From the NCBI GenBank assembly GCA_965203325.1, contig OZ241875.1:3104001-3168000 (forward strand): DNA of 64,000 nt. Reading direction: 5' to 3'. The position numbers were made by a program. The stretch comes from a bacterium (GTDB lineage Bacteria > UBA8248). This document shows, one piece after another, positions 34,801 to 52,800 of the stretch (within the stretch, counting starts at the first letter, position 1; every line of letters starts with the position of its first letter).

Positions 34801-37800
34801 CGCCAAGCATTTCCCCGGCATCGGCGACATGGCCCCCGACCCCCACGAGGTGCTGCCGACCTCACGCCTCACGCTCGACGATCTGAGAACGCGCGAGTTG
34901 GAGCCGTTCCGCCACCTCATCCGCCGCACGCCGCCCGCCTGCGTCATGATCGCCCACGCCGTTTTCGAGGCGATAGACGAAACGACTCCTGCGAGCCTGT
35001 CCCCCGTTTTTCTCCAAAATATCCTGCGCGGAGAACTCGGTTTCAGAGGCGTCGCCGTAACCGACGATCTGGACATGGGCGCGATAGACGACGCCGCAGA
35101 CGCAGCGCTTCAAAGCATCCTCGCCGGGGCGGACATCGCCCTCATCTGCCACTCGGAAGACGCACAGGAACGAGCGGTCGATGCGGTTGCGAAGGCCATC
35201 AGAGACGAACGCCTCCCCCCGGAACAGGAGGAGGTGTCATCGGATCGGATACGCAGACTCAAGGAGAGCTACTGCCGCCCGAACTGGCGGAAGGAGATGC
35301 TCGAAGTTATCGGGTGTGTGGAGCACCGAAGAGCGCACTCGAGAATCCTCGAGGCACTGGAGGTGGCCGAACAGTCAGGGGGTTGTTGAAAAAGCCCTTG
35401 TCAAGGGAGCGAACGCTCCCACCCCGGTCGCGTTCGACCCCCCAACTCCCCTTGTCGGGGCTGTTGAAAAAGCCCAAGGAGAGAGGAATCACTCCCCCCT
35501 TGAGGGGGAGTCGGTGAGGTGAGGGGGGTTTTACCCGAAACCGAACCGGTGGGGGGAGTTTTTTCTGTGGCATGTCCCCCCACCGAATCGGCCTTCGCCA
35601 AGGCTCGGCCTCTTCGACTCCCCCTCAAGGGGGGAGTGGATTTGAAATTCTCGTCCGTGGAGAGCGATCTCCGTTGGGGTCGTATACCGCCTTTTTTTAC
35701 CCCCCTGACAAGGGGGGTAGGGGGGTTGGTTTTGAGTTACGCTCACACGTTAAACCGCACGTGGAAGATGTCGCCGTCGTGGACGACGTAGTCCTTGCCC
35801 TCGAGCCGGAGCGTTCCCCTGTCCCGCGCCGCGGCGAGCGAACCTGCCGCCATGAAGTCGGGGAACGAGATTACCTCCGCGCGGATGAAACCGCGCTCGA
35901 GATCGGAGTGAATCGTCCCCGCCGCATGGAGCGCGACCGTGCCCGCGCGAACCGGCCATGCGCGTACCTCCTCCTCGCTCACCGTGAAGAAACACCTGAG
36001 ATTGAGCAGCGAGAACGCCGCCTGAATCACCTTGTCGAGCGCTGAGGATTCGAGAGCGTAATCGGCGAGAAACGCAGCCCTCTCATCGGGGGGAAGTTGG
36101 GCGAGTTCTTCTTCGAGCCTCGCGGCCAGGACGACGGGCGTCTCTCCGTTCAGTTTGGCGAAAGCGTCCGCCTCTCCCAGCTGATCCTCGCCCACGTTCA
36201 CCACGAAGAGCAGCGGCTTGGCGGAGAGAAAGCCGAACCCTTTGACGGAGCGCGCTTCCTCCGCGCTCATCTGCATCGAGCGGACGGGGCGGCCCTCTTC
36301 GAGCGCTTCGCGGATGCGTCCCAAAAGCGCGAACTCCGCCGCCTCGGCAGGATCGCGTTTAAGCTTCACCAGGCGCTCCAGACGCTCCACCCGCCGCTCG
36401 ACGACGTCGAGGTCGCGCAGCATCAGGTCGAAGCGTACGTCGGCCAGATCGCGCGCGGGGTCGACGCTCTCCTTCGGGTGCGGAACGCCTGCGTCCTCGA
36501 AGGCGCGCACCACCACCAGGAGCGCGTCCGCGCCCTCCAGCGCCTGCGGGATGGCCTCGGCGCTCTTCGCGGCGCCCGCATCGCCCACGCCCGGCGCATC
36601 CACGAAGTTGACGCTCGCATGCGTCGTCTTCTTCGGCTTGAAAACCCCGCTCAGGGCGTCCACCCGGGCGTCTGCCACCGCCGCTGCGCCCACGTTCACC
36701 CGCGCGGCGCCGTATCCCCCCGTTATGGCCGTGCCGCCCGTGAGCGCGTTGAACAGCGTCGTCTTGCCACTGGCTGCGGGGCCGATGATGCCGATTTTCA
36801 CGTTCTAACTCCTAAATGCGCCATGAACGAACAAACGCGCGCGAGTGTAGGAGAACGGAGGCACGAGGTCAAAAGGGGTGGGGTGTGTAGGGGCGGGCCT
36901 GCGTGTCCATCCCATCACCCCGTTTCATGACGCCCGACTCCGCATGGGAGAGCACATAGTCAGACATATATGTCTGACCCCTACGAAATCATTGCGGCCA
37001 CCGGAGGGACAACCCCCCGTGGTTGTCCTTTGCAGGGTGGACAGGGCCAGGACAGGTACGGGGGCCTGTCCCTGCAAAACCTGCAATCCTCGTTCCTCGG
37101 GGCTTTTTCAACAAGCCCTTGAGGGGCCGCTCCGGGAGCGTGGAGGCCCGTGTGGGGGATGCCGCTCGATGCGCACTCGGCGTAACCCTCGTCGGTCAAG
37201 CACGCGGAATTACTCGATTCACGACGGCCTGCACCGGATTTTGAAGCGGCTCGATTCGACAATGGCTCATATCCGCAATTTCGTCTATATTTTGAAAAGG
37301 CAATGGGCCGACACCTATAAAAGTGACGTGGGATGATACAGCCGGGCGCTACATCTTTACGGAAGATCGCGGTTGTCGGGAGAGGAACCGCAGGCTCCCT
37401 TGCGGCCGCCAAGGTCACTCGTCTTCTGCCCGAGAGCGACCATGAGCTGCACCACATATATGACTCGCGTATCCCGGCCCTCGGCGTGGGCGAAGGCAGC
37501 TGGCCGAGCCTGGTTCAGGAATTGCAGGAACTGACGAATCTGCCCCATGAAACCATCCAGCAGCGCTTGAATGGAACGCGCAAGTACGGCGTGACGTTCG
37601 AGGGATGGGGCCGGCGCAACCAGGACTTCACCCACTATTTCACGCCGCAACAGGTGTCCTACGCCTACCACCTGTCCGTCGACTTGATGGCGGACCTGCT
37701 GCATGAAAGCACGCGCGCGCGCCACATCGACGCGAAAGTACTCGATATCACCAGGGTGGAAGGCGGCGCGCAAGTGGAATTCGAGGGCCTGCCGCCGGAG

Positions 37801-49800: not shown

Positions 49801-52800
49801 GAGTTCGCTCAGGCGCAGTTTGCGCAGCAAGAGCGCGGGCAAGGGCAGCACGCGGGAACAATCCGAGGCCAGCGCCCTGTGCGAGGCTATCGAGCGTTAC
49901 TCGGGCGCCTGGTGCGGAGACGAAATCTGCATCCGCAGGCGGTTCAACGACCTGGCTGCGGAAGAGGCGGCAATCCATCCCAACGATGTGCAGTTGTTCA
50001 GCGATTATCAGCTCGACAACGCGGAGAGCATCAACGCGAAAGGCCACCCGTACAACATCGTCCCGCCGCGTCTCGACCCCGATGCCGAAATCGACTGGAC
50101 CCCGGTCTGGTCGTTCACGCAGCGGCGGCATCGCTATCTGCCGACGTCGATGCTCTACAGCATGTCTCCCGAAGGGCGCGGCGGCGCCGATCTGATTGCC
50201 GACTCCAACGGCTGCGCCGCGGGGAACACCCTGGAGGAGGCCATCCTGCAGGGCTTCTATGAACTGGTCGAGCGCGATGCGTTCGCCATCTGGTGGTATA
50301 ACCGACTGAGAGCGCCCGGGGTCGATCTTTGCGGCTTTGACGACGAATTCCTCGCCTCGGCCGCGGGGTACTACGGCCGCTGCGAGCGGGAAGTGTGGAT
50401 GCTCGACGTTACCTCCGATATCGGGATTCCTTCGTTCGTCGCGCTATCGCGCAGACCGGACGCGGACACCGAGGACATCATATACGGCGCAGGCGCCCAT
50501 GCCGACCCGCGGCTGGCGGCCCTGCGCGCGGTTTGCGAGCTGAACCAGTGCCTTACCTGGCTGCCGCGTCCCGGCGGGGGCGACGGCAAGCCCATGATCG
50601 ACGATCCGCTGGCGCTCAGTTGGTGGAAGACGGCTCGACTTGCCGATTGTTCCTGGCTGGCGCCGGCACCGGACGCGCCGCTCAGGCAAGGCTCGCACTA
50701 TCCGGTGATCGAATCGGCGGACACGCGCGACGACGTGGAGCATTGCCGGGCGTTGGTGGAAGCCAAAGACATGGAGTTCCTCGTGCTGGACCAGACCCGG
50801 CCGGACATCGGGATGCCGGTTGCGCGGGTCATCGTGCCGGGCATGCGCCATTTCTGGGCGAGATTCGCGCCCGGGCGCCTCTACGACGCGCCCCTCGACA
50901 TGGGACGCCGCGAACACCCCCTGGCCGAAGCTGATTTGAATCCCGCGCCCGTGATCGCGTAAGGAAGCCATATGGATATCGACGAAGCAATCACGCTTAC
51001 CCAGGACCGTCTCGCCGAAGAAGGCGGCGCCATGGGAGATTTGCTCGGGCGCTTTCGGGGCAGGATTTCACCGGTTCTGATCGGAGATCCGGGGTGGGAG
51101 CGCATACTCGAATGCGCCGGGAAACTCCCAATCACCATGGGCGCCCAGCCGTTCGGTTTCGAGCTGCCTCTGCATGACGCTCGACCGGTGGCGGATTTCG
51201 GCGTCTCGCTGGCGAGCGGAAACCGCTCGGGTGATTTTTTCGAAGAGCGGGCGCGGACCGACGAGACGGACGAGACCGCGAGAGCGGTCGGGCGGCTGTT
51301 CCGGGAAATGGAAGCTCCGAACTCGCCCCTGCGGGAGATTGTGGGACGCAAGTTGATGCTGGAATACGACATAGATTCCGCGCCGGGCGGTAACAATCCG
51401 CTTCCCGGAATGTTCCTGCGGCCCAACGAGCGCACGTTATACGGCGGCGCAGGCCTCCAGAATGATATCGGAATCGTGGTGGACGCCCTCGTTTCCTGCG
51501 TCGGCTGGGAAAGGAATGCCGCTGAACGGGAAAACGCCGAACGGGTTTATCTGGCCCAGCCCGAAGACACGCGCCTGGATTCGTTCGGGGTATTCCCGTC
51601 CCGGGAACGCACAATCCGCCTGGCGATCATGGACTTCAAATCGCAGGGGGAAGTATGCCGCTATCTTGAAAACACGGGTTGGCCGGGTGATATATCGGCC
51701 GTCGAGTCCGTGATTTCACGCTTCCGGGAACGCGCGGATATCGTCAGAACCGGATTGAATATCGACGTGCGCGAAGAGGGTGTCGGTCCGGCGCTCGGCC
51801 TGACGCTTATCGTCAAACACAGATATACGAAAGATTCACGTTCTTGGCTCGACGGCCTGACCGATTGGGACGCATTTCTGGAAGCCTTGCGCCATGAGGA
51901 CCTTGTCGTTCCGGAGAAGGTTGAGGCGCTTGCCGAGTGGGTTTCAAAACCGACGACGCTTTTTGCCAAATCCGGGCCATTTTTACTGTTGCGGGGCATT
52001 CACCACATCAAGCTGGTCATATCCGGAGATCGGCTCAGGCAGGTCAAGGCCTATGTGTTCATGGTGCTTTCCGGAGCGGTCTCGGTTTGAGAGCTACCCT
52101 GGCAAAATAAAGCAAAAATCCCCTCGCCGAAGTCGAGCGGGGGATTTCTGACTTTTACATCATGCGGATTCGAGGCATCCGCGTGCCGACTGGTGTTTCC
52201 GGTCTACCAGCAGCAGCAAAGGCCGGCCGAGACGGCTTCGAGTTGCTCCTCGGTGATGTTCGGATCCGGCGGCAACGCAATATGCACCGTCTGCATGTCG
52301 CTCTCATGGACCACGACATTCATCGAGTCGGGAATCGTGATGCCCAATTCCCCACAGATGGTCCCCTTCGGGTCTGAGAGCAGCTGTTGCCTGAAATCTG
52401 CGTCCAGGGCGGATTTCTCGACAATCTGCTTCAACATTTCATCGCCACTTCTCATGGCTAACCTCCTTGGTAAGGTTTGATGAACAACACAACCTCATGT
52501 AATGAAACCGATCTTATTCTTCGTTATTTTGCAAAGTCAACTTTTTTTTATTCGGTATTTTGATTATTTTTTCGAAGCGGAGTCTTGAACTCTACGGCGC
52601 GTGGACAGGTCGGCCACGTTATAGAAAAAGCCGGGAATTATAAAGGAAAGTTGACAAAACCCGCCTGACTTCTATTCCTCGACTTCCTCCATGACGGGTT
52701 TCCTTCATCAAATACGAGGCGGAACTTCCGCTCATAATCCGCCTTTTTCAATTCAGCCTATACACAAGATTTGAGGGCAACTCTTATTCAGGGGATAAAG

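Follow-up and report, generated by a model that had tools for sequence, protein, structure and literature searches.

A PT-barrel protein without a family model as a probable tryptophan prenyltransferase of the srp proteusin cluster

What does the 372-aa ORF (g02815) that lies between the YcaO gene and the precursor gene of the srp (sponge-derived RiPP proteusin) cluster contribute to the product? According to the available sections of bioRxiv 10.1101/2023.06.09.544420, srp clusters are transcribed and are found across many phyla of sponge symbionts, and a 2025 review presents srp, in the part accessible, as a cryptic RiPP cluster of exceptional abundance in sponge microbiomes, with a cryptic product and an unclear role (PMC12426817). 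In the accessible sections of PMC10286304 and PMC10858898, co-expression of srpE, srpC and srpI without g02815 is reported, in which SrpC forms thiazolines and SrpI brominates indole-6; thus, g02815 is dispensable for both modifications.

The window (the whole stretch of DNA analysed; 64,000 nucleotides) contains a complete srp cluster of nine genes at 37333-52455; all nine were located where the initial annotation had placed the cluster. On the plus strand, an SrpI-type flavin-dependent tryptophan halogenase (37333-38610; 425 aa; Pfam Trp_halogenase, E = 7.2e-44) is followed by a small HlyD-like protein (39022-39600; 192 aa; NCBIfam NHLM_micro_HlyD, E = 6e-8, under the cut-off of the model), of which homologs spanning 93-99% of the length are found in 31 of 80 loci, so that the same small form is kept. 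Two exporter genes come next: an NHLP-type ABC exporter with an N-terminal C39 leader peptidase (39602-41812, plus strand; 736 aa; Peptidase_C39, E = 6e-33, with ABC_tran and ABC_membrane; TIGR03796, E = 7e-257, 854.3 bits, exceeding the cut-off of 853.3), and a second NHLP-type ABC transporter subunit (41743-44754, plus strand; 1003 aa; TIGR03797, E = 3.8e-198, residues 317-1002), of which the N-terminal extension of roughly 316 aa gave no family match. The rest of the plus-strand genes are g02812, with an NHLP leader-like domain and a class II terpene-cyclase-like barrel (44830-46131; NHLP leader and SQHop_cyclase_C repeat), g02813 (46214-48610; 798 aa), in which a membrane FA_desaturase-like domain (E = 8.6e-27) is fused to a GlnE-like nucleotidyltransferase domain (E = 4e-6) and which co-occurs with the YcaO gene across related loci, the SrpC-type YcaO cyclodehydratase (48644-50962; 772 aa; YcaO, E = 2.5e-92; TIGR03604, E = 5.7e-81; TIGR03882, E = 2.2e-39), with a winged-helix and leader-binding domain at its N-terminus, and g02815 itself (50972-52090). 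The precursor SrpE is encoded on the minus strand (52204-52455; 83 aa; TIGR03793, E = 1.3e-18), and its translation shows the NHLP leader, the AG cleavage motif and the core LCCCW. An NHLP precursor with this core, a YcaO protein and a flavin-dependent Trp halogenase constitute the defining srp set, and the same set is given in the accessible parts of PMC10286304 and PMC10858898.

Sequence searches with g02815 were silent, as had been claimed: no match was obtained in Pfam at E <= 0.01 or in NCBIfam at E <= 1, hence the cyanobactin prenyltransferase model (which we take to be TIGR04445, the model of the F-family) was silent as well. None of 94 family members matched a prenyltransferase model of Pfam at E <= 1, and the profile of the family found no PDB sequence at E <= 10. 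The protein thus stands outside the curated families Trp_DMAT (PF11991), PTase_Orf2 (PF11468) and the cyanobactin prenyltransferases of NCBIfam. Its own family has no model and, at E <= 1e-3, counts 721 representatives in a library clustered at 50%. No published reading of g02815 as a prenyltransferase was found in the literature searched, outside which the founding srp paper lies.

The ABBA/PT-barrel fold that the initial annotation had assigned was reproduced independently, by an AF2 model and by its Foldseek neighbours. The model (pLDDT 95.8; pTM 0.93) has five alpha-alpha-beta-beta repeats, whose ten strands make up an antiparallel beta barrel with helices around it. Foldseek returned 89 PDB matches at E <= 1e-3, every one among the matches listed being an aromatic prenyltransferase, with 7-14% identity in the structural alignments; the closest neighbours are the indole prenyltransferases MpnD, CymD, DMATS and FgaPT2. 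In the Atlas feature search (a language-model look-alike search), the first named cluster was PF11991 Trp_DMAT (score, 0.90; 201 shared features), and PF11468 PTase_Orf2 was included in later rows. Ten residues (E64, D75, D133, R211, R216, K316, H345, K347, K359, and Y361) are conserved in 90% or more of the 94 members (25-58% identity). Most of the conserved basic, Tyr and acidic residues are on predicted barrel strands with alternating spacing; the alternation of H345/K347 and of K359/Y361 along the two final strands would place each pair on one side. We propose the conserved basic and Tyr residues as a candidate prenyl diphosphate site in the lumen, and E64, which lies on barrel strand one, could fill the part taken by a glutamate in the DMATS enzymes.

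A function does not follow from a fold alone, and no prenyltransferase family matches g02815 in sequence; the barrel may therefore transfer no prenyl at all and serve as a non-catalytic scaffold binding a peptide or lipid, as a chaperone of the precursor, or in some other barrel chemistry. Among cyanobactin clusters, PatF is a catalytically inactive ABBA protein and thus a precedent for such a case. The SrpC and SrpI steps, moreover, run without g02815 in the accessible part of PMC10286304. However, ten charged or aromatic residues kept at the strands to this extent look more like an active site than a scaffold, a PT-like gene is the sole candidate maturase beside the precursor at one of the paralog loci (see below), and the terpene-cyclase-fold partner g02812 would be left without a substrate if nothing were prenylated. 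We consider this explanation unlikely, and prefer to read g02815 as a prenyltransferase.

The linkage of g02815 to SrpE was examined in the species-genome set, in which 219 stretches encode relatives of g02815. The loci compared were the best 80 of the 219, from other species and anchored on g02815 itself (70-94% identical to it). The MAGs that encode these best 80 carry the labels Nitrospinota, Alpha- and Gammaproteobacteria, Latescibacterota, Gemmatimonadota, Acidobacteriota orders, Binatia, Opitutales, Thermodesulfobacteriota and Rhodothermales, and the labels bear out the spread over phyla noted earlier. An intact 83-aa SrpE is encoded in 74 of the best 80 loci, and in 70 of these 74 it is the convergent next gene to the g02815 homolog. 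Seventy-one of the 74 intact homologs end with AGLCCCW, the Cys positions varying in the other three, and the terminal Trp is present in all 74. Within the genus of the window, a g02815-type gene lies beside 11 of 14 SrpE copies and occurs in each of the 10 genomes that have SrpE. The complex prediction for g02815 with SrpE scored 0.32 (best control, 0.01), a mark attained by 116 out of 157 solved complexes and by 2 of 215 mismatched pairs; with scores of 0.60 or less, it was attained by just 18 of the 157 solved complexes, yet by both mismatched pairs that passed. The runs agreed in at least 68% of the contacts, with a partner pLDDT of at least 73, and the prediction lends weak support to the pairing of the two proteins. 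To judge from the names of the structural matches, most characterized ABBA/DMATS enzymes prenylate small molecules, and g02815 might likewise act on a small non-peptide aromatic molecule, with SrpE merely a neighbour. This seems highly improbable to us, given the convergent SrpE gene across several phyla (70 of 74 loci), the NHLP-precursor loci at which all three paralogs likewise lie, and the Pfam and NCBIfam annotation, in which the srp cluster holds no gene of a small-molecule pathway.

The source genome encodes four members of the family, g02815 and three paralogs (g01702; g03306 and g03310). These had been said to flank two further NHLP precursors, and each of the two loci does hold one. 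One of them (locus A) consists of the precursor and the PT-like gene alone, no other maturase being found by Pfam, and YcaO is absent from both loci. The precursor cores at the paralog loci contain Trp or Tyr and lack Cys; in the type A core, the second Trp is conserved in 16 of 16 copies. These cores bear on the acceptor, which could be another group than the Trp indole, namely the free N-terminus after removal of the leader, the carboxylate at the C-terminus, or, within LCCCW, a Cys thiol or a thiazoline. ABBA enzymes of the cyanobactin type accept N-termini, Ser/Thr, Arg, His and Tyr besides Trp as prenylation sites (PMC12715784, in the text available), the C-terminal CCCW loosely resembles a CaaX box, and C6 of the indole is already taken by SrpI. 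On the other hand, the lack of Cys in the paralog precursor cores rules out a thiol or thiazoline as the acceptor for the whole family, and Trp or Tyr is the feature common to the cores of its precursors. In SrpE, the terminal Trp is the constant residue and the Cys positions are not, the nearest structural neighbours act on indoles, and N1, C2, C3, C5 and C7 remain free beside the bromine at C6. An active g02815 with such a different acceptor is thus, in our estimation, a minor possibility.

From these observations we regard g02815, with moderately good probability, as a very divergent aromatic prenyltransferase of the ABBA/PT-barrel type that matures SrpE by acting on the Trp indole. The predicted fold, the look-alike search, the conserved residues, the linkage to SrpE, the precursors of the paralogs and the terpene-cyclase-fold partner support this reading, which the initial annotation had put forward, and the srp peptide product is probably prenylated, judging from the predicted fold of g02815 and its place beside the precursor. 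Mechanistically, g02815 would engage the SrpE precursor and bind a prenyl diphosphate within the lumen of the barrel through R211, R216, K316, H345, K347, K359, Y132 and Y361; it would then ionize the diphosphate, and Trp83, the invariant C-terminal residue, would capture the allylic cation with its indole.

The partner g02812 may act next. It consists of an NHLP leader-like domain (about residues 1-80) and a monodomain class II terpene-cyclase-like alpha/alpha barrel (about residues 112-433), predicted to be of the squalene-hopene-cyclase type in a model of middling confidence (pLDDT 74.7). Homologs occur in 70 of the best 80 loci, the remaining 10 being incomplete upstream. Its motif D209-L-D211-S212, unchanged in all 41 orthologs aligned, retains the first and middle Asp of the canonical DxDD with Ser at the fourth position; MstE presumably carries a DxDTT-like variant of this class II acid motif. 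In the proposed scheme, g02812 would protonate and cyclize the peptide-attached chain, which would then have to be C10 or longer, and maturation would end in a pentapeptide that bears bromine, three thiazolines and a prenyl chain, the last possibly terpene-cyclized. More tentatively, and with less than even confidence, we suggest that the constant core of g02812, g02815 and SrpE makes a peptide-meroterpenoid, in which a new, Pfam-invisible PT-barrel family puts a C10-or-longer prenyl group on the C-terminal Trp and the leader-bearing cyclase may be recruited in the manner of a precursor, or may even undergo export and cleavage as one does; such a pathway would cyclize a terpene on a ribosomal peptide, with a RiPP leader as the enzyme's own address tag. 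Should the product carry a prenyl group, perhaps terpene-cyclized, then searches of sponge extracts have used the wrong masses and the wrong polarity, and lipidation would indicate a membrane-directed function. One more protein family would also be added to the RiPP prenyltransferases, and biocatalysis would gain a second leader-guided enzyme for a C-terminal Trp, beside SrpI.

Among known systems, the indole ABBA/DMATS enzymes (MpnD, TleC, CymD, IptA, PriB, 5- and 6-DMATS, FgaPT2) and NphB/CloQ/EpzP are only 7-14% identical to g02815, which matches neither PF11991 nor PF11468, and their substrates are free amino acids or small molecules; g02815, by contrast, goes with the precursor of a ribosomal peptide. 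The cyanobactin F-family (PagF, LimF, LynF/TruF) performs RiPP prenylation with the ABBA fold, and PagF and LimF are among the Foldseek matches of g02815; these enzymes are, in the available text of PMC12715784, leader-independent and act on excised or macrocyclic cores. In Paenibacillus alvei, PalQ prenylates the conserved C-terminal Trp of the NHLP-type precursor PalX, and the NHLP domain enhances the reaction; PalQ has, unlike g02815, an all-helical isoprene-synthase/ComQ-like fold and not a PT barrel (PMC10853753, in the part accessible). For g02812, the structural model is MstE of Scytonema, a monodomain class II terpene cyclase (PDB 6SBB-6SBG; 15-16% identity), from which it differs by the N-terminal NHLP leader-like domain, the D-L-D-S motif, and a substrate that would be a peptide. 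The closest published parallel to srp is the mpp cluster of Moorena producens, which encodes the SrpI-like brominase MppI, the ABBA prenyltransferase MppC, the terpene synthase MppD and the precursor MppE (PMC11791876, in the sections available). As far as those sections and that part of PMC12715784 describe it, mpp, like srp, encodes a RiPP precursor whose leader is long and structured and an SrpI-like Trp brominase that depends on the leader, as well as a PT-fold gene and a terpene-synthase gene, both predicted on the srp side; MppC is a soluble alpha-beta-beta-alpha enzyme that needs the leader and alkylates the Trp indole, geranylating C5. According to the same sections, MppE has a Nif11-type leader and a LanM-made lanthionine ring, in contrast to the NHLP leader and YcaO-made thiazolines of srp, and MppC was recognized as a prenyltransferase from its sequence by its authors, whereas g02815 matches no family model and is set beside MppC by description. 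In srp, unlike in mpp, the terpene-cyclase-like protein combines a class II monodomain with an NHLP leader.

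Nine genes were recognized within window positions 37333-52455 by ORF listing and by scans against Pfam and NCBIfam. On the forward strand, these are a Trp halogenase, SrpI (37333-38610; Trp_halogenase, E 7e-44), a HlyD-like protein of 192 aa (39022-39600), an NHLP-type exporter with a C39 peptidase (39602-41812; TIGR03796, 854 bits, above the cut-off), a second ABC subunit (41743-44754; TIGR03797 match), g02812 (44830-46131), which carries an NHLP leader-like domain and a SQHop_cyclase_C repeat, g02813 (46214-48610), with FA_desaturase and GlnE-like domains, a YcaO protein with a leader-binding domain, SrpC (48644-50962), and g02815 (50972-52090), an ORF of 372 aa that starts 9 bases past the YcaO stop. 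The NHLP precursor SrpE (83 aa; 52204-52455, minus strand) is convergent to these and its C-terminus reads AG-LCCCW. The flanks are housekeeping genes, namely that of the YchF GTPase upstream and those of a periplasmic binding protein, methylmalonyl-CoA mutase and MeaB downstream. The gene listing and the family scans thus confirmed the srp cluster that the initial annotation had placed here, and its borders were correct because housekeeping genes stand on both sides. The cluster matches the published srp system, in which SrpC makes thiazolines from all three Cys residues of LCCCW and SrpI performs a leader-dependent bromination at indole C6 of the terminal Trp (PMC10286304, PMC10858898).

Some features of the region were recorded in passing. 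The first 70 bases of the second ABC transporter ORF also belong to the end of the gene before it, and its true start may therefore be further downstream; its N-terminal extension of about 316 residues (41743-42690, plus strand), ahead of the TIGR03797 match, matched none of the families. In g02813, a membrane fatty-acid-desaturase/hydroxylase-like domain is joined to a GlnE-like nucleotidyltransferase domain; its gene always accompanies the YcaO gene, including nine loci with a more divergent pair (47-61% and 63-70% identity) at some distance from g02815. The G+C content rises to 0.70-0.73 at window positions 24001-28000, compared with about 0.62 in the rest of the window.

The product of g02815 lies outside the named sequence families, as had been noted initially: no match was found in Pfam at E<=0.01 or in NCBIfam at E<=1. 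Among the candidates of a 90%-clustered collection, 1031 proteins were related to it at E<=1e-3, and the best 120 of these 1031 were all 74-94% identical and unnamed or hypothetical; in a 50%-clustered library, 721 representatives were found at E<=1e-3 and 93 at E<=1e-30. An alignment was made of 94 full-length family members with 25-58% identity to the query. None of these 94 members matched a prenyltransferase Pfam model at E<=1, and the profile of the alignment found no PDB sequence at E<=10. A search with Pfam PF11991 gave no match in the genome of the window or in any of 14 control genomes; as the controls were equally empty, this carries no weight as evidence of absence. The AlphaFold2 model calculated from this alignment had a pLDDT of 95.8 and a pTM of 0.93, with 343 of the 372 residues at 90 or above, and consists of a short helical N-terminus followed by five consecutive helix-helix-strand-strand units. 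When the model was compared with the PDB by Foldseek, 89 matches were obtained at E<=1e-3, and all the matches listed were aromatic prenyltransferases (5- and 6-DMATS, DMATS1, IptA, PriB, EpzP, AmbP1/AmbP3, NphB, CloQ, PagF, LimF, AtaPT, CdpNPT and FunA). In the Atlas feature search, which is independent of structure, the first named cluster, below unnamed ones, was PF11991 Trp_DMAT (0.90, 201 shared features), and a cluster that is partly PF11468 ranked lower than Trp_DMAT. The aromatic prenyltransferase fold that had been predicted for this family was therefore borne out by our own model, by Foldseek and by the Atlas features. Since the sequence-level searches were empty, the link of g02815 to the prenyltransferases rests on the predicted fold together with these features.

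Residues conserved in at least 90% of the 94 aligned sequences include E64, D75, D133, R211, R216, K316, H345, K347, K359 and Y361, and E131, Y132 and D265 were kept in 82-85%. According to DSSP of the predicted model, the majority of the conserved residues sit on barrel strands, and the i, i+2 spacing of H345/K347 and of K359/Y361 indicates that the members of each pair face the same side of a strand. In aromatic prenyltransferases such as FgaPT2 and NphB, the diphosphate and the indole are bound by a set of Arg, Lys and Tyr residues together with a first-strand Glu.

Relatives of g02815 were found in 219 stretches of the species-genome set, and the best 80 of the 219 came from metagenome-assembled genomes (MAGs) of many phyla with 70-94% identity. 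The neighbours of these 80 were counted by tblastn with the window proteins within 10 kb of the g02815 relative, a match being accepted at a coverage of at least 60%. Homologs were found of g02812 in 70 of the 80 loci (all 10 loci without it are cut short upstream), of the second ABC subunit in 69, of YcaO in 63, of g02813 in 59 and of SrpI in 31. An intact 83-aa SrpE was present in 74/80 loci; 71 of the 74 end in AGLCCCW, in the other three Ser or Thr stands in place of one Cys, and none of the 74 has lost the terminal Trp. In 70 of the 74, the gene that follows the g02815 ortholog, in convergent orientation, is SrpE. As for the six loci without an intact SrpE, one, in a gammaproteobacterial MAG (locus L016, about 11300-11519, minus strand), has a 72-aa frame with an altered C-terminus, apparently a precursor damaged by a frameshift or by decay, next to an intact g02815 ortholog; another is a 2.5-kb contig; and in the remaining four the sole match was the leader domain of g02812, one of them having less than 1 kb of downstream flank. 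The orthologs in these loci (L005-L084), which span about 10 labelled phyla or classes, are far closer to each other than their hosts are, and this implies that the whole cluster spreads horizontally among sponge-associated bacteria.

Note that the 80 loci were picked via g02815 and therefore measure the fidelity of g02815 to SrpE, not the reverse. The reverse was tested within the genus of the window, where 14 SrpE copies (at least 87% identity) were found in 10 of 23 genomes, and a g02815 of the srp type adjoins 11 of the 14. Of the three other copies, two are surplus to the two complete pairs of a single genome, and one is on a contig about 2 kb long. The extra copies without an adjoining prenyltransferase-like gene are 87-89% identical (G027:C4:21465-21713 and 4117548-4117796; G015:C198:329-577), and one genome of the genus holds four SrpE copies with two full g02815-SrpE pairs. 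Among the genomes of the phylum, the g02815 family was found in the genus of the window only (16 of 51 genomes including that of the window), being present in 15 of the 22 other genomes of this genus.

In ten of the 80 loci, the exporters, g02812, g02815 and SrpE stand in this order and no YcaO gene, whole or cut, was found within 10 kb; four of the ten have short flanks. Such loci could be read as evidence that YcaO is dispensable for the cluster. This was ruled out, because an SrpC-like YcaO (62-71% identity) was found elsewhere in the genome in all five of the ten that were searched; in at least two of these five genomes, its coordinates fit a position just past the 10-kb flank. The cluster is composed of two modules, one of YcaO and g02813 and the other of g02812, g02815 and SrpE.

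At its N-terminus, the constant neighbour g02812 has an NHLP leader-like domain (TIGR03793, E 4e-11); its SQHop_cyclase_C repeat is above the Pfam cut-off. The protein was folded with 40 orthologs from related loci (69-89% identical), and the model was middling (pLDDT 74.7, pTM 0.71), with low values in the linker and some loops. By structure comparison of this predicted model, residues 112-433 match class II terpene cyclases, with values of 24.6-25.5 for MstE, 23-24 for monodomain and classical squalene-hopene cyclases, and down to 19.6 for drimenyl diphosphate synthase, oxidosqualene cyclase and copalyl diphosphate synthases. MstE is a monodomain cyclase that cyclises polyprenyl-dihydroxybenzoates. 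The stretch D209-L-D211-S212, invariant in 41/41 sequences, appears similar to the DxDD acid motif, with the middle Asp kept. As the substrate of a class II cyclase is an isoprenoid chain, the constant presence of g02812 beside g02815 and SrpE gives independent support for prenylation and suggests that the attached prenyl chain is longer than C5. After the leader-like domain, g02812 has a Gly78-Ala79 pair (G78 invariant, A79 in at least 90% of 41 orthologs) that resembles the AG cleavage site of SrpE. Judging from this pair and the leader-like domain, the cyclase might itself be a target of the C39 exporter, recognised by it and perhaps cleaved or exported; alternatively, the leader-like domain may dock the cyclase to leader-binding partners.

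The genome of the window holds three further members of the g02815 family (31-33% identity), and the earlier statement that they flank two other NHLP precursors was upheld at both loci, A and B. At locus A (1912259-1913821), the paralog (1912724-1913821, plus strand) is placed after an NHLP precursor with a core of 18 residues, two of them Trp and none Cys; no other maturase was found around the pair by Pfam, the neighbours being a permease and an amidohydrolase. The second Trp is kept in 16/16 copies of this precursor in the genus and the first in 9/16. At locus B, two paralogs stand on either side of a precursor ending in Ile-Tyr-Tyr, together with a C39-ABC exporter, a second ABC protein, a P450 and a methyltransferase, and YcaO is absent by Pfam. 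Another genome of the genus, G024, has eight family members, three with in-frame stops, which suggests that the system has expanded locally; one of the eight is adjoined by two tandem NHLP precursors (L113:465-1409) with longer aromatic-rich cores, which also carry Phe, Tyr, His or Trp. The precursors adjoining the family all combine an NHLP leader with a short core that contains an aromatic residue, whereas Cys, a YcaO and a halogenase are not shared. This argues that the g02815 family would be a maturase in its own right with an aromatic acceptor, and a role as a YcaO accessory was ruled out because the paralog loci have no YcaO.

The complex of g02815 and SrpE was also predicted, with both chains supplied as alignments. 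The score was 0.32 against 0.01 for the best control, the runs shared at least 68% of contacts, and the partner pLDDT was at least 73. Of 157 solved complexes, 116 reached this mark, as did 2 of 215 mismatched pairs; among those that reached it, a score of 0.60 or below was seen for only 18 of the 157 solved complexes and for both mismatches. The prediction lends weak support to a binding of g02815 to SrpE, and little weight was put on it.

ABBA prenylation of RiPPs is known in cyanobactins, where it is leader-independent, and since 2025 also in a lanthipeptide of Moorena producens, where MppC geranylates indole C5 of Trp and depends on the Nif11-type leader of MppE (PMC12715784). The mpp cluster was discovered by SrpI-based mining and holds the SrpI-like brominase MppI, the prenyltransferase MppC and the terpene synthase MppD (PMC11791876), which is the same trio of functions as that proposed here for srp. 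The C-terminal Trp of an NHLP precursor is prenylated by PalQ, an enzyme with an isoprene-synthase fold (PMC10853753). Among the papers searched, of which only three contain LCCCW, none connects srp with prenylation or with a terpene cyclase, and the founding paper (Nguyen et al. 2021) may name the gene; "prenyl" has 0 occurrences in PMC10858898, PMC12455567, PMC9426513 and PMC12615548, and a 2025 review describes the srp cluster as still cryptic (PMC12426817). Going by the alphabet, the gene between srpC and srpE would be srpD and the two ahead of srpC would be srpA and srpB; a search for SrpA, SrpB and SrpD gave no relevant paper. A prenyltransferase is the best-supported explanation of g02815, and we favour it with moderate confidence as a prediction from fold and context; it is strengthened by the terpene-cyclase partner, by the YcaO-free and Cys-free contexts of the paralogs and by the mpp parallel. 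The predicted enzyme would thus work like a known kind, the RiPP-prenylating ABBA enzymes, but differs from them in three respects: it belongs to a separate sequence family without a model, it is associated with NHLP proteusins, and its companion is a class II cyclase that bears a leader.
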